Origin: Escherichia coli | GTDB lineage: Bacteria > Pseudomonadota > Gammaproteobacteria > Enterobacterales > Enterobacteriaceae | DNA: 64,000 nt | Reading direction: 5' to 3' (one strand) | Assembly (NCBI RefSeq): GCF_003018255.1 | Contig: NZ_CP027440.1 | Shown here: positions 35,986-61,510 of the stretch, piece by piece | Layout of the letters: each line of letters opens with the position of its first letter | Position numbering within the stretch: position 1 is the first letter of the stretch | Notes under the pieces: generated by a model | Databases searched by the model: none | What the model was told of the DNA's origin: nothing | Seen by the model: the letters and a program-made list of their open reading frames with translations, nothing else | Position numbers and translations under genes: made by a program

Positions 35986-36069
35986 ACACCGTCGCTTAAA
36001 GTGACGGCATAATAATAAAAATATGAAATTCCTCTTTGACGGGCCAATAGCGATATTGGCCATTTTTTT
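35986..36069 (+). ncRNA. chiX: ChiX (MicM/SroB) Hfq-dependent sRNA
   Basis: ACACCGTCGCTTAAAGTGACGGCATAATAATAAAAATATGAAATTCCTCTTTGACGGGCCAATAGCGATATTGGCCATTTTTTT matches ChiX as I recall it; 5' hairpin, AU-rich linker, terminator hairpin plus U-run; in ybaK-ybaP gap as in K-12. Confidence 0.88.
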
Positions 36070-36862
36070 AGCGCAACATCTGCGGCAAATTCCCTTCTCC
36101 ATACAGGTGTAGTGCACCGACCGCGACCACATATCGCCCCGGCGGCATGGCGCGTAATTTGTCCCGCCAGGCGAGATTTCGCTGATGCATCAGCACATCG
36201 TACAGCGACTGACTGAACGTATTAGGCAGCGTTATTTCATTATTTTGTGGCGGTGTATTCAGCCACCAGCTCATCATTTGTTGCAGCAACCGTGCGTTGG
36301 TGTGCCAGTGGGTCAGCGTATCGTCCAGCAGCGCCAGTCCGTTGTCAGGGAGCTGGAGCAACATGGCAATCTGGTTTTCTGCCCCTTCCAGTTCAATCAC
36401 GGGTTTATGTTGTTGCTTCGCCGCCTGCAATAGCTGGTAATCGATACCGTATTCTGCCCGCAGCCCCAGTTTTTGTGCCTGCGTCGCCTGAAGAACCATC
36501 GCGATTTGCCACAGCGGTTGAGTAGAAAAGAGCGACGGAGAAATGCCCATCTCCTGGCTAATATGCTGCAGATTTTGGAGTTGCTCCTCGCTAATGCGCT
36601 CTTCCAGCGTCTCGCAGGCAGGCAAATTAGCAAAAGGCGTATCGCTGGTGGAAACATCCGCCTCGACGATCAGCGCATCGGCGTTTTTGAGCTTTTTGAG
36701 CAAACGGGTGGGCAGGGGAGCCATATCGTGGCTACCCATATGAATACTGCCAATCAGATGAAAATGGCGATTGCCGGGAAGAGAGATATCGATAGCAGGC
36801 CAGGTGTAATGATTACCGCGCAGCGCGGCCCAAAGCGTTTTTACCCGGTACAACAGATCCAT
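36068..36862 (-). CDS. ybaP: TraB/GumN-family protein YbaP
   Basis: 264-aa ORF recognised as ybaP; stop codon overlaps the chiX terminator. Confidence 0.9.
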   Translation of the reverse strand: MDLLYRVKTLWAALRGNHYTWPAIDISLPGNRHFHLIGSIHMGSHDMAPLPTRLLKKLKNADALIVEADVSTSDTPFANLPACETLEERISEEQLQNLQHISQEMGISPSLFSTQPLWQIAMVLQATQAQKLGLRAEYGIDYQLLQAAKQQHKPVIELEGAENQIAMLLQLPDNGLALLDDTLTHWHTNARLLQQMMSWWLNTPPQNNEITLPNTFSQSLYDVLMHQRNLAWRDKLRAMPPGRYVVAVGALHLYGEGNLPQMLR

Positions 36863-36928
36863 ACGACCTCCCTTTGTGAAATATCATGCTAGCGCGCGGG
36901 GAGGGATGGCGCAAATGGAGTTGATTGT

Positions 36929-36962
36929 TGCACTTGCGCACAGTGCTTGTGTGCATTACAAT
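36929..36962 (+). promoter_or_regulatory. Predicted sigma-70 promoter with overlapping inverted repeats upstream of higB-like gene
   Basis: -35 TTGCGC (36934-36939), 17-bp spacer, -10 TACAAT (36957-36962); IRs GCACT-N7-AGTGC (36930-36946) and TGCAC-N17-GTGCA (36929-36955). Confidence 0.45.
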
Positions 36963-36994
36963 GATTAAATAATGGACAAGGAGATGAGAGAGGA

Positions 36995-37297
36995 ATGGCT
37001 CAAAAGAAAAATATAAGGAGTTTTCGTGATGCCTGGTTGGCTGATTTTTTTGTCCATTCAACGCCACATCGAAAGATCCCTGCTGAAATCCATACCACGT
37101 TATCACGAAAGTTGGACATCATTAATGCTGCCACTTCTCATCGGGATTTACGCTCCCCTCCGGGGAACCGATACGAAGAGTTATCCGGGAAATTACAGGA
37201 ATACTCCTCCATTAGAGTGAATAAACAGTACCGACTGATTTTTAAATGGGTTAATGGCAAGGCCGAAGAATTGTTTTTAGACCCACACAACTACTAA
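36995..37297 (+). CDS. HigB-like (RelE/ParE superfamily, 'plasmid maintenance system killer') toxin
   Basis: 100-aa ORF, GAGAGG SD; by-eye fit to the HigB/COG3549 pattern: N-terminal F..AWLADFF, PPGNRYEELSG, SIRVNKQYRLIF, C-terminal DPHNY; toxin-first order, 35 bp before a HigA-like HTH gene. Confidence 0.75.
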   Translation: MAQKKNIRSFRDAWLADFFVHSTPHRKIPAEIHTTLSRKLDIINAATSHRDLRSPPGNRYEELSGKLQEYSSIRVNKQYRLIFKWVNGKAEELFLDPHNY

Positions 37298-37332
37298 AAC
37301 ATAGCTGTCGTATTGACGAGAAAGGTAAAACT

Positions 37333-37674
37333 ATGAAACAGGCAACAAGAAAACCGACGACACCCGGAGATATTCTTCTCTATGAATATCTGGAACCGCT
37401 CGATTTGAAAATCAATGAGTTAGCAGAGTTGCTGCATGTTCATCGTAATAGCGTCAGTGCACTGATCAATAACAATCGTAAACTCACCACTGAGATGGCA
37501 TTCCGTCTGGCGAAAGTTTTTGATACCACAGTCGATTTTTGGCTAAACCTCCAGGCGGCAGTTGATCTTTGGGAAGTTGAAAACAACATGCGTACCCAGG
37601 AAGAATTGGGACGGATTGAAACAGTGGCTGAATATTTGGCACGCCGTGAAGAGCGTGCAAAAAAGGTCGCGTAG
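37333..37674 (+). CDS. ybaQ: HigA-family XRE HTH antitoxin-like regulator YbaQ
   Basis: 113-aa ORF recognised as ybaQ; HTH ELAELLHVHRNSVSALINNNRKLT. Confidence 0.9.
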   Translation: MKQATRKPTTPGDILLYEYLEPLDLKINELAELLHVHRNSVSALINNNRKLTTEMAFRLAKVFDTTVDFWLNLQAAVDLWEVENNMRTQEELGRIETVAEYLARREERAKKVA

Positions 37675-37731
37675 AATAATTTCCCTATAACGGATGCGCC
37701 ACCCTAAAGCAGTGCATCCGCAATGATGTAC

Positions 37732-40236
37732 TTATTCCTTCGGTTTAAACCGCAGCAACCGGTTGGCGTTACTCACTACGGTAATCGACGAGAGCGCCAT
37801 TGCCGCTCCGGCGACCACCGGGTTAAGCAGCGTACCGGTGAACGGCCACAAAATACCGGCGGCGACCGGAATACCAATGCTGTTGTAGATAAACGCACCG
37901 AGCAGGTTCTGCTTCATGTTGCGCAGCGTTGCGCGGGAAATTGCGAGCGCATCCGCAACACCCATCAGGCTATGGCGCATCAGGGTAATCGCCGCGGTTT
38001 CAATGGCAACATCACTGCCGCCACCCATCGCAATACCGACATCCGCCTGAGCCAGCGCTGGCGCATCGTTAATGCCGTCGCCCACCATTGCTACCTGACG
38101 TCCTTCACTTTGCAGACGTTTGATCGCTTCGGCTTTACCGTCTGGCAGCACGCCGGCTATCACCTCATCAATCCCTGCTTCTTTAGCGATCGCATTGGCG
38201 GTGGTCGGGTTATCCCCGGTTAGCATCACCAGGCGATATCCCGCTTTATGCAGGCGTTGCAGCGCCGCCACGCTATCACTACGCAACGGATCGCGTACAG
38301 CCAGCAGGGCTACCGCTTTCCCGTCAACCGCCAGCAGCACAGGCGTTGCCCCTTGCGATGCCTGAGCTGAAATATCTGCTTCAATTGCTTTGGTATCGAC
38401 CTGTTGGTCATTTAACAGCGCCTGATTACCCAGCAATACCGCATGACCTTCAGCTTCACCGCTCACACCCAGCCCGCGCAATGTGCGGAAACCGTTGACC
38501 TGCGGCAGCTGCATATCACCTGCTTTATCGAGGATCGCCCGTGCCAGCGGGTGGCTGGAACCTTGCTCCAGCGCCGCCGCCAGACGCAGCGCCTGCGCTT
38601 CATCAACATCAGCAAATGTTTTTACTGCGACAACCTGCGGCTTCCCTTCGGTCAGCGTCCCGGTTTTATCGAACACCACGGTGTCGAGCGTACTGGCGCG
38701 TTGCAGCGCGTCGGCGTCCCGCACCAGCACGCCAAACTCAGCCGCCCGCCCGACGCCCGAAATAATCGACATCGGCGTCGCCAGTCCCAGCGCACACGGA
38801 CAGGCGATAATCAGCACCGTGGTGGCAATCACCAGGGTATAAACAATTTGCGGTGCCGGGCCAAAGAAATACCAGATTGCCGCACTGACCAGCGCAATGA
38901 CTACCACCACCGGCACAAACACAGCGGAGATTTTATCCGCCAGTTGACCGATTTCTGGCTTGCTGCTCTGGGCCTGTCGCACCATGCGAATGATCCGTGA
39001 CAGCGTAGTATGGCTGCCGACCGCACTGGCGCGAAACAGCACACTGCCGTCCTGTACCACTGTCCCGGCATGGACGCTATCGCCTTCGCCTTTTTGCTGC
39101 GGGATTGGTTCGCCCGTCAGCATCGCTTCATCCAGCCACGCTTCGCCCTGGGTAATTTCACCATCTACCGGCACCCGATCACCCGTCGTCAGGCGCAGCA
39201 ACATACCTGGCTGAACATCTGCCAGCGGCACGTTTTTTTCACCTTCGTTGGTGACCAGGCGCGCCGTCGGTGGGGTTAAATCGAGTAATTTCTCCAGCGC
39301 CTTAGAAGAACGCTGACGTGCGCGCGCTTCCAGCATATGACCGAGATTAATCAGACCGATAATCATCGCACTGGCTTCATAGTAAAGATGTCGCGCTTCC
39401 ATCGGGAACCACTGCGGCCACAGGTTGACGCTCATTGAATAGAGCCACGCCACGCCCGTACCCAGCGCCACCAGCGTATCCATCGTCGCTGCACCGTTCA
39501 GCAGGCTTTTCCATGCGCTGCGGTAAAAATGGCCGCCGGCGAAAACCATTACCGCCAGGGTTATCAGGCCGATAACCAACCACAGGCTGCGGTTGTCGGC
39601 GGTGACCATCATGTTATCGCCGATCATCCCCCAGACCATCACCGGGATACCCACCGCCAGTGCGACAATCGCCTGCCAGCGGAAGCGCTTCATCGTAGCG
39701 ACGGCGGTTTCTTGCTGGCGCTCGCGGCGTTTAGCGTCATCTTCAATCGCTTCCGCGCCGTAGCCCGCTTTTTCCACCGCCTGCACTAAATCTTGTGGGG
39801 AGGCACTGCCCATCACCAGCGCAGTACGCTCCGCCAGGTTTACCCGTGCCTGAGTGACGCCCGGTACGCTTTGCAACGCATTTTGTACGCGGGTGACACA
39901 GCTGGCGCAGCTCATGCCGCTCAGCAGCAACTGCTGGCTGTCATCGTCATCGGCGGTCGCTGCCGGAAGCGCCTCAGAAACCGCTGTCAGTGCTTCCGAC
40001 GGGATTGATGACTCCGCCAGCGGTTTAGCCTTTGGGTGGCTTACAGATGCGTCATAACCCGCTTGTTTGATGGTTTCGATCAGCTGTTCTGCACTGGCAG
40101 TCCCGGTAACGTGCGCTTCAGTGACAGACACATCCGCCTGCTCAACATCCGGGCGCTGTTCGAGACTTTCTTTCACGCGTTTAACGCAGTGACCGCAGGA
40201 CAGGCCGTCCAGGGTCAGGTCGATAGTTTGTGACAT
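37732..40236 (-). CDS. copA: Cu(I)-exporting P1B-type ATPase CopA
   Basis: 834-aa ORF; two N-terminal CxxC metal-binding domains (GLSCGHC, GMSCASC), CPC motif, DKTGT phosphorylation site. Confidence 0.98.
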
Positions 40237-44771: not shown

Positions 44772-45788
44772 TTAGAACGAATATCCTACGCCGACACCTG
44801 CGCCGAAATCAGATTGCGTATCCGCAGAAATACCGGCTTTAAGTACCGTATGCGTTCCGGCATTAAAAGATGTTCCGACAGACACCGCAGATTCACCGTT
44901 GAAGGTTCCCGCTCCCGCTGACACCATCATCACGTCACCGGTTTTAACCTGTGGTTGTGAGGCGATAGCGATGGCAGATGCAGTTCCCGCATTGGCTTCT
45001 TTACGGTTGTCCTCAACTTCGTTTTTCAGCGAACTGTAATGGTTATTGAGCGTGTTAATTTGTTGGCTGTTATCTGCGACCCGTTTTTGCGTGTTGCTTA
45101 ACTGTTGCTGCGTTTGTGCGGAATCTTGTCTCAGACTTTCAATTTGCTCATGTGCCTGGACAGACTTCTGCGCCAGACTTTGCATTTGTTTATCGTATTG
45201 AGCCCTTTCTTTTTGCTGTTGTGCTGCCACATCGGTTGTCAGTGCATTCATTTTCTGCCCTTGTTCCGTGGTAGTGCGCTGATTAGCCTCATTTTGAGCC
45301 GCCAGTCTGGCATTAATCATCTCCTGATAATGCGCAGTATTTTGCGTATCTCCAGTCGCGGCGAGCGTTTTTTGTGTGGCTACGATCTGCGCCTGTTGCT
45401 CTGTAATTTGCGTTTGCTGGGCATCAGTTACCGCAGACTGTCGGGCGTTGATCATGCTCTGATAACGGGCAGGTGTCTGTGTATCACCTGTAGCGGCAAC
45501 GGTTTTTTGTCCTGCGTCAGGATCTGTCTGGACAGTGGGAGTCTGAGTGGTATCAGGTGTTTCAGAAGGGATGTAGTGATGTTCAGTCAAATAGGTATAC
45601 GCAGCGGGGCTGTTGTCTGTGCGTTCTAAAAAGCGGGTAATCTTCTGCTCAATCTCCGATTGCGACATGCCAGAGTTAATGGCTGAAAGCTCTGTTGCCG
45701 CCGCTTCAATGGTATCACCAGCTAAAACAACAGGGCTGGATGTTGCTGAAATTATGAGTGCCAGTAAAGCTACGTTTACAGTTTTCAT
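44772..45788 (-). CDS. Short 'headless' trimeric autotransporter adhesin-like protein (coiled-coil stalk + YadA-type anchor)
   Basis: 338-aa ORF; signal peptide MKTVNVALLALIISATSSPVVLA; Gln-rich heptad stalk; C-terminus ...VMMVSAGAGTFNGESAVSVGTSFNAGTHTVLKAGISADTQSDFGAGVGVGYSF = four beta-strands ending aromatic, typical YadA anchor. Confidence 0.8.
   Translation of the reverse strand: MKTVNVALLALIISATSSPVVLAGDTIEAAATELSAINSGMSQSEIEQKITRFLERTDNSPAAYTYLTEHHYIPSETPDTTQTPTVQTDPDAGQKTVAATGDTQTPARYQSMINARQSAVTDAQQTQITEQQAQIVATQKTLAATGDTQNTAHYQEMINARLAAQNEANQRTTTEQGQKMNALTTDVAAQQQKERAQYDKQMQSLAQKSVQAHEQIESLRQDSAQTQQQLSNTQKRVADNSQQINTLNNHYSSLKNEVEDNRKEANAGTASAIAIASQPQVKTGDVMMVSAGAGTFNGESAVSVGTSFNAGTHTVLKAGISADTQSDFGAGVGVGYSF
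45240..45509 (-). repeat. Diverged 135-bp (45-aa) tandem duplication inside the adhesin stalk
   Basis: QKTVAATGDTQTPARYQSMINARQSA... vs QKTLAATGDTQNTAHYQEMINARLAA...; DNA landmark GTATC at 45346 and 45481 (135 bp apart). Confidence 0.8.
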
Positions 45789-55477: not shown

Positions 55478-56933
55478 ATGAGCGGAAAACCAGCGGCGCG
55501 TCAGGGAGATATGACTCAGTATGGCGGTCCCATTGTCCAGGGTTCGGCAGGTGTAAGAATTGGCGCGCCCACCGGCGTGGCGTGCTCGGTGTGTCCGGGC
55601 GGGATGACCTCGGGCAACCCGGTAAATCCGCTGCTGGGGGCGAAGGTGCTGCCCGGCGAGACGGACCTTGCGCTGCCCGGCCCGCTGCCGTTCATTCTCT
55701 CCCGCACCTACAGCAGCTACCGGACGAAGACGCCTGCGCCGGTGGGGATTTTTGGCCCCGGCTGGAAAGCGCCTTCTGATATCCGCTTACAGATACGCGA
55801 TGATGTACTGGTACTCAACGACAACGGCGGACGGAGCATTCACTTTGAGCCGCTGCTGCCGGGTGAGGCGGTGTACAGCCGCAGCGAGTCCCTGTGGCTG
55901 GTGCGTGGCGGTAAGGCAACGCAGCCGGACGGCCACACGCTGGCACGGCTGTGGGCGTCGCTGCCGCCGGATATCCGGTTAAGCCCGCATCTTTACCTGG
56001 CGACCAGCAGCGCACAGGGGCCGTGGTGGATACTGGGGTGGTCTGAGCGGGTGCCGGGTGCTGAGGACGTACTGCCAGCGCCGCTGCCGCCGTACCGGAT
56101 GCTTACCGGGCTGGCGGACCGCTTCGGGCAGACGCTGACGTACCGGCGTGAGGCCGCCGGTGACCTGGCCGGGGAAATCACCGGCGTGACGGACGGTGCC
56201 GGGCGGGAGTTCCGTCTGGTGCTGACCACGCAGGCGCAGCGGGCGGAAGAGGCCCGTAAACAGCACACCGCTTCCTTATTTTCCCCTGACACCCCCCGCC
56301 CTCTTTCAGACTCTGCGTTCCCCGACACACTGCCCGGTACGGAATACGGCCCCGACAGGGGCATCCGTCTTTCGGCGGTGTGGCTGATGCACGACCCGGC
56401 ATACCCGGAAAGCCTGCCCGGTGCGCCACTGGCGCGGTACACGTATACGGAAGCCGGTGAACTGCTGGCGGTATATGACCGCAGCAATACGCAGGTGCGC
56501 GCTTTCACGTATGACGCGCAGCACCCGGGCCGGATGGTGGGGCACCGTTATGCGGGAAGGCCGGAGATGCGCTACCGCTACGACGATGCGGGGCGGGTGG
56601 TGGAGCAGCTGAACCCGACAGGCCTGAGTTACCGCTACCAGTATGAGCAGGACCGCATCACCATCACGGACAGCCTGAACCGGCGAGAGGTGCTGCATAC
56701 AGAAGGCGGGGCCGGGCTGAAGCGGGTGGTGAAAAAAGAACTGGCGGACGGCAGCGTCACGCACAGCGGGTATGACGCGGCAGGAAGGCTCACGGCACAG
56801 ACGGACGCGGCGGGACGGCGGACAGAGTACGGCCTGAATGTGGTGTCCGGCGATATCACGGATATCACCACGCCGGACGGGCGGGAGACGAAATTTTACT
56901 ATAACGACGGGAACCAGTTAACGGCGGTGGTGT
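55478..56933 (+). pseudogene. rhsD: Rhs polymorphic toxin gene, 5' fragment (PAAR-like N-terminus + start of YD-repeat core), cut by IS
   Basis: MSGKPAARQGDMTQYGGPIVQGSAGVRIGAPTGVACSVCPGG...; YD repeats; frame runs 12 codons into the IS and stops at 56969-56971; locus between ybbP and selU = K-12 rhsD position. Confidence 0.9.
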
Positions 56934-56967
56934 CCTTGACCCACGATATTCAGACAGTCGTTGTATC

Positions 56968-57849
56968 TTAAGTTGACGTTACCCGCTGACGTCGATATTC
57001 CCTTGGTGAGAGATAACCTAACGCACTATGCGGATGGGTTTCATTGTAATGCTCGATCGCCACTGCAAGGTTATGCAATGCCGTTCTTACATTCGGTTTC
57101 GGCATGAACGCGATGTAGTCTTCTTTCATCGTTTTCACGAACCTTTCTGCCATTCCATTGCTCTGAGGGCTACTGACTGCCGTTGTGCAGGGCTCCAGAT
57201 TCAACTCTCTGGCGAACTGCCGTGTTTCATGAGCTGTATAAGCCGAACCGTTATCAGTCAGCCACTGGATTGGCCGTTCCGCTCCTTTATCGCCAAAGCG
57301 TTTTTCTATTGCTCCTAACATGACATCCTGCACCGTTGCTTTGTCATAACCTCCCGTGCTTGCGGCCCAGTCTATGGCTTCACGATCGCAACAGTCCAGT
57401 GCGAACGTGACACGCAGTTTTGCGCCATCATCACAACCGAACTCAAAGCCATCGGAACACCAGCGCTGGTCGCTTTCCTTCACCGATATTCGGCCTTTAT
57501 GTTCCCGCTGCGGCCGTGAAGGTTTGTCATGTAACAACAACAGGTTATTTTCGCTCATTATCCGATAAACGCGCTTTGCATTCACGAACGGCACTCCTTT
57601 GTTACGGGACTGTCGTCTGAGAATGGCCCAGACACGACGATAGCCATATGTCGGCATATCGCTGATGATATCAAGGATACGTGCTAACACTTCCGCATCC
57701 GCAGCCTCATCACATCTGCGACGACGTTTATTCGGCTTATTACCAGATGTTTTCATCCGTTGTGCCAGTTGCGCACGCGACACGCCCAGAATACGGCTTA
57801 CCAGGGTTATTCCTTGTCCGTTGGCAACAAGGGCGCATGCGCTATCCAT
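56968..57849 (-). CDS. IS2-group transposase OrfB (DDE integrase core)
   Basis: 293-aa ORF; [25 protein letters not shown] (D,D,E); strong by-eye similarity to IS2 InsD. Confidence 0.9.
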
Positions 57850-58199
57850 TTTCGCGACTGACCATACTCCACCGCTTCTTTGAGGATCTCAACTTCCATG
57901 GTTTTCTTACCCAGCAAGCGCTGTAACTCTTTTATTTGTTTTATAGCGGCAGCCAGTTCTGAGGCAGGAACGACATCCTCTCCGGCAGCAACAGCAGTGA
58001 GACTTCCTTCCAGATATTGTTTTTTCCACTTAAACAACAGGCTGGGCTGAATACCATGCAAACGCGCCACATGGGACACCGTCATACCGGGTTCCATTGT
58101 CTGCTGAATAATGGCGATTTTTTCCTGAGGAGTTTTACGTTTACGAAGCTCCTGCCCCAGCAAAATTCCAGTCATCTCAAAATTAGCACTAGTAGACAT
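57807..58199 (-). CDS. IS2-group transposase OrfA (HTH)
   Basis: [38 protein letters not shown]...[19 protein letters not shown] resembles IS2 InsC; start uncertain (ATG 58199, 58175 or 58232); overlaps orfB by 43 nt in the -1 frame. Confidence 0.85.
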
Positions 58200-58263
58200 A
58201 TATCCAAGCCTATCTCTTATTTTAAGATACATCCACTGTCTGGCGTTTCAAGGGGCCGGTTCA

Positions 58264-61038
58264 CAGTTAACGGCGGTGGTGTACCCGGACGGGCTGGAGA
58301 GCAGCCGGGCATATGATGAGCTGGACAGACTGGTATCGGAGACATCGCGCAGCGGGGAGACAGTACGCTACCGCTACGATGACGTGCACAGTGAGTTACC
58401 GGCGACGACAACGGATGCGACGGGCAGCACCCGGCAGATGACCTGGAGCCGCTACGGGCAGTTGCTGGCCTTCACCGACTGCTCGGGCTACCAGACCCGC
58501 TATGAATACGACCACTTTGGTCAGATGACGGCGGTCCATCGTGAGGAAGGCATCAGCACGTACAATACCTATAACCCGCGCGGCCAGCTGGTCAGCCGGA
58601 AAGACGCACAGGGCCGTGAAACGCGGTATGAATACAACGCCGCAGGCGACCTGACTGCCGTTATCACCCCGGACGGCAACCGGAGCGAGACACAGTACGA
58701 TGCGTGGGGAAAGGCGGTCAGCACCACGCAGGGCGGGCTGACGCGCAGTATGGAGTACGATGCTGCCGGACGTGTCATCAGCCTGACCAACGAGAACGGC
58801 AGTCACAGCGACTTCAGCTACGATACGCTTGACCGGCTGGTACAGCAGCGCGGCTTTGACGGGCGGACGCAACGTTATCATTATGACCTGACCGGAAAAC
58901 TCACGCAGAGTGAAGATGAGGGGCTTGTCATCCTCTGGTACTACGATGAATCGGACCGTATCACTCACCGCACGGTGAACGGCGAACCGGCAGAGCAGTG
59001 GCAGTATGATGGCCACGGCTGGCTGAGAGAAATCAGCCACCTGAGCGAAGGCCACCGTGTTGCCGTCCACTATGGCTACGACGATAAGGGCCGTCTGACC
59101 GGGGAGCGCCAGACGGTGGAGAACCCGGAGACGGGGGAACTGCTGTGGCAGCATGAGACGAAACAGGCATACAACGAACAGGGGCTGGCAAACCGCGTCA
59201 CGCCGGACAGCCTGCCGCCGGTGGAGTGGCTGGCCTATGGCAGCGGTTATCTGGCGGGCATGAAGCTGGGCGGGACGCCGCTGCTGGAGTACACGCGCGA
59301 CCGCCTGCACCGGGAGACGGTGCGCAGCTTCGGCAGCATGGCAGGCAATACAGCCGCATATGAACTGACCAGCACTTACACCCCCGCAGGCCAGTTACAG
59401 AGCCGGCACCTGAACAGCCTGGTGTTTGATTGTGACTATAACTGGAATGACAACGGCGACCTGATGCGCATCAGCGGCCCGCGACAGACGCGGGAATACG
59501 GCTACAGCGCCACGGGCAGGCTGGAGAGCGTGCGCACCCTCGCACCGGACCTGGACATCCGCATCCCGTATGCCACCGACCCGGCGGGCAACCGGCTGCC
59601 GGACCCGGAGCTGCACCCGGACAGTACACTCACAGTGTGGCCGGATAACCGAATCACCGAAGACGCGCACTACCTGTACCGTTACGATGAATACGGCAGG
59701 CTGGCGGAGAAGACGGACCGCATCCCGGCGGGTGTGATACGGACGGACGACGAGCGGACCCACCACTACCACTACGACAGCCAGCACCGCCTGGTGTTCT
59801 ATACGCGGATACAGCATGGCGAGCCACTGGTCGAGAGCCGCTACCTTTACGACCCGCTGGGCCGCCGGACGGGTAAACGGGTGTGGCGTCGCGGGCGTGA
59901 CCTGACAGGATGGATGTCGCTGTCGCGTAAACCGGAGGAGACGTGGTACGGGTGGGACGGCGACAGGCTGACGACGGTGCAGACTGACAGCACGCGTATC
60001 CAGACGGTGTACCAGCCGGGAAGCTTCACACCGCTCATCCGCATCGAAACAGACGTGACCGAACTGGAGAAAGCGCAGCGGCGGAGCCTGGCGGAGAAGC
60101 TCCAGCAGGAAGGGAGCGAGGACGGACACGGCGTGGTGTTCCCGGCTGAACTGGTGCGGCTGCTGGACAGGCTGGAGGAAGAAATCCGGACAGACCGCGT
60201 GAGCAGTGAAAGCCGGGCGTGGCTTGCGCAGTGCGGGCTGACGGTGGAGCAACTGGAAAAACAGGTGGAGCCGGAATATACACCGGCGCGAAAAGTTCAT
60301 CTTTACCACTGCGACCACCGGGGCCTGCCGCTGGCGCTTATCAGCGAAGACGGCAATACGGTGTGGAGCGCGGAGTATGATGAATGGGGAAACCTGCTTA
60401 ATGAGGAGAACCCGCATCATGTGTATCAGTCATACCGTCTGCCGGGGCAGCAGCATGATGAGGAGTCGGGGCTGTACTACAACCGGAACCGGTACTACAA
60501 TCCGTTGCTGGGACGATATATTACTCAGGACCCGATTGGGCTGGCGGGGGGATGGAGTCTGTATGCGTATCCGCTGAATCCGGTGAATGGTATTGATCCA
60601 TTAGGATTAAGTCCTGCAGATGTAGCGTTAATGCGAAAAAAAGAACAATTAAACCATCAAAGAGCATGGGATATATTATCTGATACTTATGATGATATGA
60701 AGAGATTAAATTTAGGTGGGACTGATCAATTTTTCCATTGTATGGCATTTTGTCGAGTGTCTAAATTAAATGACGCTGGTGTTAGCCGATCAGCGAAAGG
60801 GCTGGGTTATGAAAAAGAGATTAGAGATTACGGGTTAAATATGTTCGGTATGTACGGCAGAAAAGTAAAGTTATCCCATTCTGAGATGATTGAAGATAAT
60901 AAAAAAGACTTGGCTGTAAATGAACATGGGTTGACATGTCCATTAACACAAGATTGCTCAAATAGATGTATTGATTATATTAATCCAGAGCATAAAAAAA
61001 CGATAAAGGCTTTACAAGATGCTGGCTATCTCAAGTAA
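58264..61038 (+). pseudogene. rhsD: Rhs polymorphic toxin gene, 3' fragment (YD-repeat core + C-terminal toxin tip)
   Basis: Frame [23 protein letters not shown]... continues the 5' fragment exactly; YD repeats throughout; core ends [27 protein letters not shown] (to 60609). Confidence 0.9.
60610..61035 (+). other. Rhs C-terminal variable toxin domain (142 aa), AT-rich
   Basis: Begins right after the PxxxxDPxGL core-terminating motif; composition switches abruptly from GC-rich core to AT-rich tip; five Cys; by-eye serum-amyloid-A-like motifs (see findings). Confidence 0.7.
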
Positions 61039-61510
61039 CATCTCAAAGATGGTAATATTTATTTTTGCTATTATAATCGTTGTTTTTTTATGCGTGACTA
61101 CTTATCTTTATTTACACAAAGATGAATCTCTTGTAAGTAAGCATTACATAAACTATATGGCAATACCAGAAAGTGATGGGGTTTTTACATGGCTCCCAGA
61201 TTTTTTTCCGCACGTAGCGGTGGATATATCAATATCCACAAATGTAGAAGATGATTATTTTTTTTCTTATTTTTCCCTAACAATCGATGATGGGGGGAGG
61301 TTTAAGAAAACATTGACTGTGAGGGCCAGGGAACAAGTGGCGAAAATCGTATCAGAGAATGATCCAGATACAAAAAAAGTGTGGTGTAAATATGGTAAAA
61401 TACCAGGGCAAGGGGATAGCGTAAACCTTTTTTTTGTTGGTGAAATTAATGTTACGCATTATTTTATAACAAATATTGGAGCTGGGTTACCTGATGCTTG
61501 TGCAGAGTAA
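61019..61510 (+). CDS. Candidate Rhs immunity protein with N-terminal TM anchor
   Basis: 163-aa AT-rich ORF overlapping the toxin 3' end by 20 nt; hydrophobic helix [22 protein letters not shown]; position typical of rhsI genes. Confidence 0.65.

Follow-up and report, generated by a model that had tools for sequence, protein, structure and literature searches.

The 64,000-nucleotide (nt) stretch of Escherichia coli DNA analysed here (contig NZ_CP027440.1 of RefSeq assembly GCF_003018255.1, the whole of which is referred to as the window) very probably carries, between ybaP and copA, a chromosomal type II toxin-antitoxin (TA) operon of the higBA kind, with the toxin gene first. The operon is made up of a toxin gene of the higB-1 type and of ybaQ, which encodes a helix-turn-helix (HTH) antitoxin and repressor of the HigA family. 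The pair is known and unremarkable: RefSeq annotates it and it was published in 2020-21, two facts that the first-pass annotation of this region had missed. In RefSeq, the toxin is named 'type II toxin-antitoxin system RelE/ParE family toxin' (WP_000057523.1) and YbaQ is named 'HigA family addiction module antitoxin' (WP_000806442.1). The published work is that of Rousset and colleagues, which reportedly appeared later in Nature Microbiology in 2021.

The toxin was named higB-1 by Rousset et al. (bioRxiv 10.1101/2020.05.25.114553), who framed YbaQ as a transcriptional regulator of toxin expression. In their study, ybaQ was essential in 5 of the 18 strains, these being the B2 and F strains that carry higB-1, and was non-essential in CFT073, in which higB-1 is truncated. 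Knockdown of ybaQ in strain S88 led to strong overexpression of higB-1, and the higB-1 promoter was reported to contain the YbaQ ChIP-exo motif. The same authors found higB-1 to be missing from most phylogroups, including K-12, and both genes to have been lost from phylogroup D.

The genes in the region are arranged in the order ybaK - sroB/ChiX - ybaP - toxin - ybaQ - copA. The intact toxin open reading frame (ORF) occupies 36995-37297 on the plus strand and encodes 100 amino acids (aa), beginning at the first in-frame start codon past a stop at 36962; its product (WP_000057523.1) belongs to the HigB/GraT subfamily of the RelE/ParE superfamily. A 35-nt spacer separates it from ybaQ (37333-37674, plus strand, 113 aa). 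Upstream of the toxin gene, ybaP lies on the opposite strand at 36068-36862, while copA (37732-40236) is located downstream and is convergent with ybaQ. The first-pass annotation had described a 100-aa ORF placed 35 bp upstream of ybaQ on the same strand in a toxin-first arrangement, and the coordinates obtained here agree with that description; the four peptide motifs it listed (FRDAWLADFF, PPGNRYEELSG, SIRVNKQYRLIF and DPHNY) are all present in the translation. A purine-rich ribosome-binding region can be read from the sequence at 36978-36993 (plus strand), comprising AAGGAG at 36978-36983, which is 11 nt before the toxin ATG, and GAGG at 36990-36993, which is 1 nt before it. The good Shine-Dalgarno sequence of the earlier description is this canonical AAGGAG, the 11-nt spacing of which is longer than optimal. 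Among homologues, the spacing of AAGGAG is also 11 nt at a Citrobacter locus (L006), the same register is occupied by AAGGTG at locus L007, and 10 nt were counted at a Kosakonia locus (L010).

Assignment of the toxin to the HigB family, as had been proposed at first pass, was borne out by a Pfam search in which the PF05015 profile (HigB-like toxin) was matched with 111.6 bits (cut-off 27; E = 2.7e-32), residues 9-98 of the toxin being aligned with positions 2-91 of 91 and hence with essentially the whole profile. Chain B of 6f8s, labelled 'Putative Killer protein', was the one solved structure to give a strong match, at an E-value of 2.8e-15 that fell to 6e-18 when a profile of 26 homologues was used. 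The crystal also contains an XRE-family protein, chain A, which matches YbaQ; we take 6f8s to be the GraT-GraA complex of Pseudomonas putida. The 26-homologue profile also reached HigB of Proteus vulgaris in its free and ribosome-bound forms (4mct, 4px8 and 4ypb), aligned along its entire length with an E-value of about 2e-4, and, after these, YoeB. Within the 26 homologues 29 residues are invariant, including R38, K39, the PPGN loop, S72-I73-R74, N76, Q78-Y79-R80, H98 and Y100. The window toxin keeps all 29, and D96 is conserved in 90% or more of the sequences. In the profile alignment the counterparts of D96, H98 and R80 in P. vulgaris HigB are D90, H92 and R73, and that of E61 is H54. The basic and His/Tyr residues presumably serve in the active site. 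When the PADLOC-DB defence-system models were searched, the toxin had no match and YbaQ had only marginal HTH matches (E of about 3e-3).

YbaQ scored 105.3 bits against the HigA equivalog TIGR02607 (cut-off 47.7; E = 1.1e-30), and the HTH_3 domain PF01381 was detected in it with an E-value of 3e-11. The protein is identical to PDB entry 2eby and is related to HigA, GraA and VapI structures (3trb, 3cec, 6jpi, 6f8s_A, 2icp and 4mcx); besides 2eby, solved antitoxins of the HigA/GraA type that match it number seven in all. YbaQ of K-12 had been labelled a solitary antitoxin by RASTA-Bacteria in 2007. The C-terminal RAKKVA of YbaQ, encoded at 37657-37674 in the window, is a C-motif-2 degron of ClpXP (PMC9775585 Table 2) and has served as a ClpXP degradation tag (PMC2907309). 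Of 78 YbaQ-type antitoxins, 61 end in Ala, 56 of them with [AVLIT]A, while the residues that precede this ending vary; the nominal binomial p-value exaggerates the significance of this, because the sequences are related and not phylogenetically independent. Such Ala-ending termini are consistent with a C-terminal degron of the ClpXP type that would be conserved across the family.

Relatives of the toxin were collected by a scan with one genome per species, which found 229, and the loci of the best 80 were compared. Downstream of the toxin gene, at a distance of a few tens of bases at most, 79 of these 80 loci have a homologue of ybaQ on the same strand, and the identities of toxin and antitoxin drop in parallel across the loci. 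Within these best 80 of the 229, a position between ybaP and copA is confined to E. coli and E. ruysiae, and unrelated sequence flanks the pair in E. albertii, Citrobacter, Kosakonia, Pectobacterium and Pantoea, among others. Relatives of the toxin on plasmids amounted to 2133 records, most of them conjugative plasmids, with 92 at 80-81% identity. Conserved pairing at a variable site, together with occurrence on plasmids, is how a mobile module of two genes behaves. As a separate observation, the toxin homologue of E. albertii NBRC 107761 has four tandem AATGACC heptamers at its 5' end (L009:2970-3000); these create more than one candidate ATG start and might switch toxin translation by slippage.

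The region upstream of the toxin gene contains a predicted operator at 36929-36955 (plus strand), the probable binding site of YbaQ, which consists of two overlapping palindromes with four GCAC/GTGC half-sites spaced about 8 bp apart. The inverted repeats are GCACT-N7-AGTGC (36930-36946), GCACA-N7-TGTGC (36938-36954) and TGCAC-N17-GTGCA (36929-36955), together with the palindrome TGCGCA at 36935-36940. A putative sigma-70 promoter can be read within the operator at 36934-36962 (plus strand), with a -35 hexamer TTGCGC (36934-36939), a 17-nt spacer and a -10 hexamer TACAAT (36957-36962). The hexamers, the spacer and the nested inverted repeats that overlap them were all confirmed as they had been described at first pass. 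A single copy of GCACT-N7-AGTGC is present in the 64-kb window, where chance would give 0.06. Across species, 58 of the 80 homologous loci have GCAC-N9-GTGC no more than 150 nt upstream of the start of the toxin gene, inside flanks that are otherwise unrelated, against a background of 19 occurrences in 462 kb of surrounding sequence, or 0.006 per 150 nt. The operator block of the Enterobacterales reads roughly (A)TGCACTTGnGCACnGTGCAnnnGTGCnTTAnnAT. A -35-like TTGnGC is located in the loop of the first palindrome in the homologues and TAnnAT directly follows the last half-site, and in more distant lineages a single GCACAA-N7-TTGTGC stands between TTGAC and a -10-like hexamer. It is from this cross-species comparison that the support for the putative promoter comes. 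Every toxin-bearing E. coli allele that was examined retains both palindromes, which alleles of the K-12 type lack.

The allele in the window is close to the one that was studied experimentally. Over 36863-37731, 3 of 869 nt differ from S88, none of them in the operator or in the promoter hexamers; the differences include one toxin substitution, R50 in the window and W50 in S88, and base 36967 just downstream of the -10 hexamer. Position 50 is variable across the family, where R, K, W, C, S, L and other residues occur. The toxin protein is 100% identical to that of ST131 strain 4433, and the same WP_000057523.1 is carried by strain 104. The exact protein is the commonest form, with at least 1000 contigs in public records, where it goes by 'Killer protein' and similar names. 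In CFT073, one T is missing from a run of seven T residues within the toxin gene (37039-37045, plus strand), and therefore the toxin is frameshifted; RefSeq flags the gene as a pseudogene. The same lesion was noted in assembly GCA_030872895.1 (L097), and the T7 run may be a recurrent or an inherited off-switch for the toxin. Ten contexts were seen for the exact YbaQ protein, comprising six with an intact toxin gene, one with a frameshifted toxin gene and three of the K-12 type.

Allele frequencies were obtained from 5,426 complete E. coli genomes. The full toxin-ybaQ interval is present in 1,265 (23%), a count that refers to the interval and not to the intactness of the ORF, whereas 3,563 (66%) have the K-12-type junction with ybaQ alone. 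The remaining genomes, about 11%, appear to be without both toxin gene and ybaQ; two kinds of deletion were recognised in this group, one derived from the K-12-type allele (PK8275) and one that has removed ybaQ apart from its final 60 nt or so (E600003). The remark at first pass that K-12 has no annotated toxin partner for ybaQ was correct, and alignment with K-12 showed that this strain has neither the toxin ORF nor its promoter. In the K-12-type allele, the promoter, toxin gene and spacer are replaced by about 80 nt that lie between a shared GGAGTTG and the start of ybaQ (L001:1554-1637, compared with 36916-36994 in the window). This stretch of about 80 nt upstream of the K-12-type ybaQ contains no GCAC/GTGC half-sites. 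Since the orphan allele is without any GCAC half-site, orphan YbaQ has probably lost the autoregulation through the operator that is typical of the family, and would no longer be autorepressed.

Derivation of the K-12 allele by a clean deletion of higB was considered and rejected. Global alignment of a 77-nt slice of that allele with the window promoter gave a z-score of 1.1, and 292 of 2000 shuffles scored equally well, so that the similarity is not significant. In MAFFT and pairwise alignments the K-12 sequence was scattered; the weak collinear blocks ACTTG...ATT and CACAAGGA suggest a remnant without proving one.

A mechanism can be proposed from these features. A single promoter embedded in the operator would transcribe the toxin of the HigB/GraT type and then YbaQ, and YbaQ dimers would occupy the palindromes that cover the interval from -35 to -10, thus repressing the operon. 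YbaQ would also bind the toxin directly and so neutralise it, in the manner of GraA and GraT. Because its RAKKVA C-terminus is a ClpXP degron, YbaQ is expected to be unstable and to be turned over faster than the toxin, so that on cessation of YbaQ synthesis the operon would be derepressed and free toxin would accumulate. The free toxin would then act as a ribosome-dependent mRNase with a RelE fold, cleaving mRNA on the ribosome and arresting growth. We infer the direct binding of toxin and YbaQ by analogy with the GraT-GraA complex, and the RNase activity of the toxin by homology; the exact contacts of YbaQ with its operator are likewise predictions.

Several points weigh against this account. 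Repression alone could explain why ybaQ is essential, and the allele tested in S88 has W50 where the window has R50. Catalytic details of the subfamily may differ from those of P. vulgaris HigB, because the equivalent of its H54 is Glu61. A single-sequence AlphaFold model of the toxin, with a pLDDT of 52.9, was too poor for independent confirmation of the fold. Finally, the proposed promoter was not called by a generic sigma-70 scan, since its weak -35 hexamer matches at only 3 of 6 positions.

The first of these points leads to the alternative of a repressor-controlled toxin that is not a true type II pair, in which YbaQ would only shut off transcription of the toxin gene without binding the protein. 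The published evidence for the pair consists of essentiality and transcriptional derepression, both of which this alternative would accommodate, and orphan YbaQ persists as a stand-alone regulator in 66% of the genomes. It is nevertheless improbable, because GraT and GraA, the nearest solved homologues, were crystallised together as chains B and A of 6f8s and because the two genes are strictly co-inherited, their adjacency and parallel divergence in 79 of 80 loci being typical of interacting pairs. YbaQ, moreover, passes the equivalog model for the HigA 'addiction module antitoxin'.

The type II operon could also be in decay in this particular strain, with a toxin so attenuated that it is tolerated without its antitoxin, as in CFT073. 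Inactivated alleles do circulate, as the T7-run frameshift in CFT073 and L097 attests; toxin variants of 83 aa and of 97-99 aa fall within the same 90% cluster, and the window has R50 where the tested S88 allele has W50. Set against this are a full-length ORF with every family-invariant residue kept, the variability of position 50, the occurrence of the exact protein as the commonest form on at least 1000 contigs, including ST131 strain 4433 and strain 104, and the two intact operator palindromes, because of which repression is presumably maintained. We therefore regard a decayed allele as very improbable. A ParE-type gyrase poison in place of an mRNA interferase, for which the RefSeq name 'RelE/ParE family toxin' leaves room and to which a weak ParE_like match below threshold points (E = 0.024; 15 bits versus a cut-off of 24.4), can be practically dismissed given the 111.6 bits to the HigB-like profile, the reach of the 26-homologue profile to ribosome-bound HigB (4ypb and 4w4g) and YoeB but to no ParE structure in the PDB, and the conservation of the C-terminal D-x-H and of the RNase-site Arg residues.

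A further property of the cassette is its low diversity. Relative to S88, the 3 differences in the 869-nt cassette compare with 99 in the 3300 nt of ybaP and copA (Fisher p = 2e-7), and the synonymous divergence (pS) is 0 for both TA genes versus 0.09-0.11 for the flanks. Among 18 E. coli sequences, nucleotide diversity (pi) was 0.005-0.007 in the TA genes (0.005 in ybaQ) and 0.018-0.041 in the flanking genes, which is a 3-8-fold reduction. In the comparison with E. ruysiae, pS was 0.04 for ybaQ versus 0.24-0.39 for higB, ybaP, copA and ybaK, and the tract of lowest divergence, 37283-37677, coincides with ybaQ. Either recent recombinational exchange or constraint on silent sites would explain the low diversity of the cassette.

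It is not safe to regard ybaQ as dispensable in carriers of the allele (B2, F, ST131 and relatives), which has consequences for knock-out and CRISPRi work and for essential-gene lists derived from K-12. The alleles also form a natural series for the study of TA decay and orphan persistence, running from the intact pair through the frameshifted toxin and the operator-less orphan to the loss of both genes. The question of why an orphan antitoxin is retained was raised by Rousset et al. (bioRxiv 10.1101/2020.05.25.114553), and the side observations made here are modest leads on it. One speculative answer, to which we give little credence, is that the orphan ybaQ of about two-thirds of E. coli, including K-12, may serve as an anti-addiction gene or cross-regulator against incoming plasmid higBA modules. 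This suggestion is based on the loss of the operator, the near-invariant ybaQ coding sequence and the existence of at least 92 enterobacterial plasmids with a toxin of 80-81% identity, the one examined among them also having an antitoxin of 78% identity and an identical operator core.

Several other features of the window were recorded. Between the convergent ybaQ and copA, RNA folding predicts a hairpin with a 9-bp stem at 37691-37719, which is with low confidence a possible shared terminator; the fold of 37670-37745 has an energy of -17.3 kcal/mol (z = -2.3) and lacks a strong T tract, and a pattern scan returned a weak terminator-like site at 37711-37732. The ybaQ-copA intergenic region measures 57 nt in the window versus 315 nt in K-12 (L001:1980-2294), with the hairpin common to both; extra sequence at the corresponding position is also present in E600003, where it has a REP-like look. 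In the ybaK-ybaP intergenic region, the sroB/ChiX small RNA was located at 35986-36069 on the plus strand (Rfam RF00368, 81 bits), and this region is nearly invariant, with 1 segregating site in 203 nt among the E. coli compared. Further away, 55478-61510 holds an Rhs element (DUF6531, RHS repeats and RHS core) that an IS3-family transposase gene (rve integrase, 56968-57849, minus strand) appears to interrupt; a 7.4-kb Rhs segment is absent at this site in CFT073, S88 and strain 104. The segment 43994-46615 is absent from CFT073 and present in S88 and strain 104, and contains a gene for a short YadA-family autotransporter adhesin (44772-45788, minus strand) together with small hypothetical ORFs between cueR and ybbJ.

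Of the known systems, the higB-1/ybaQ pair of E. coli B2/F strains is the same as that of the window, with the same locus and the same YbaQ (WP_000806442.1); the window differs from it only by R50 in place of W50, by base 36967 and by 3 of 869 nt in all. The GraTA system of P. putida, in which the toxin gene likewise comes first, provides the closest solved toxin: GraT shares the motifs DLRSPPGNR-E-LSG and SIRVN-Q-RL-F-W with the window toxin, and GraA (6f8s, also 6f8h and 6fix) matches YbaQ with an E-value of about 3e-10. The GraT alignment, however, covers residues 6-87 only, leaving the toxin N-terminus and the C-terminal LDPHNY tail unaligned, and GraTA differs from the window pair in host and chromosomal site. 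HigBA of P. vulgaris Rts1 (4mct, 4mcx, 4px8, 4ypb and 4w4g) has in common with the pair the family PF05015, the toxin-first order and an antitoxin of the HigA HTH type, but its HigB belongs to a distant subfamily that is without the PPGNR loop and has H54 where the window toxin has Glu61.

HigBA of E. coli K-12 (YgjN/YgjM) shares its name and the toxin-first order with the window pair. No chain labelled as K-12 HigB (YgjN) was among the PDB matches to the family profile at E <= 1, the presence of such a chain in the copy searched being unconfirmed; because no YgjN-labelled chain was matched, the window toxin seems distinct from K-12 HigB, which suggests that the two would represent separate RelE-like sequence families and that YgjN would not be the partner of YbaQ. 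The plasmid-borne higBA relatives, on E. coli pF8704-2_2 and on Salmonella plasmids of 74-95 kb, differ from the window pair in being extrachromosomal. On pF8704-2_2 (L098:2420-3212), the toxin is 80% and the antitoxin 78% identical to those of the window and the operator core TGCACTTGCGCACAGTGC is identical, while the spacer is 70 nt long versus 35 nt. Because this pair is similar and its operator core identical, cross-talk with chromosomal YbaQ is conceivable, and cross-repression or anti-addiction between YbaQ and modules of the pF8704-2_2 type is possible.

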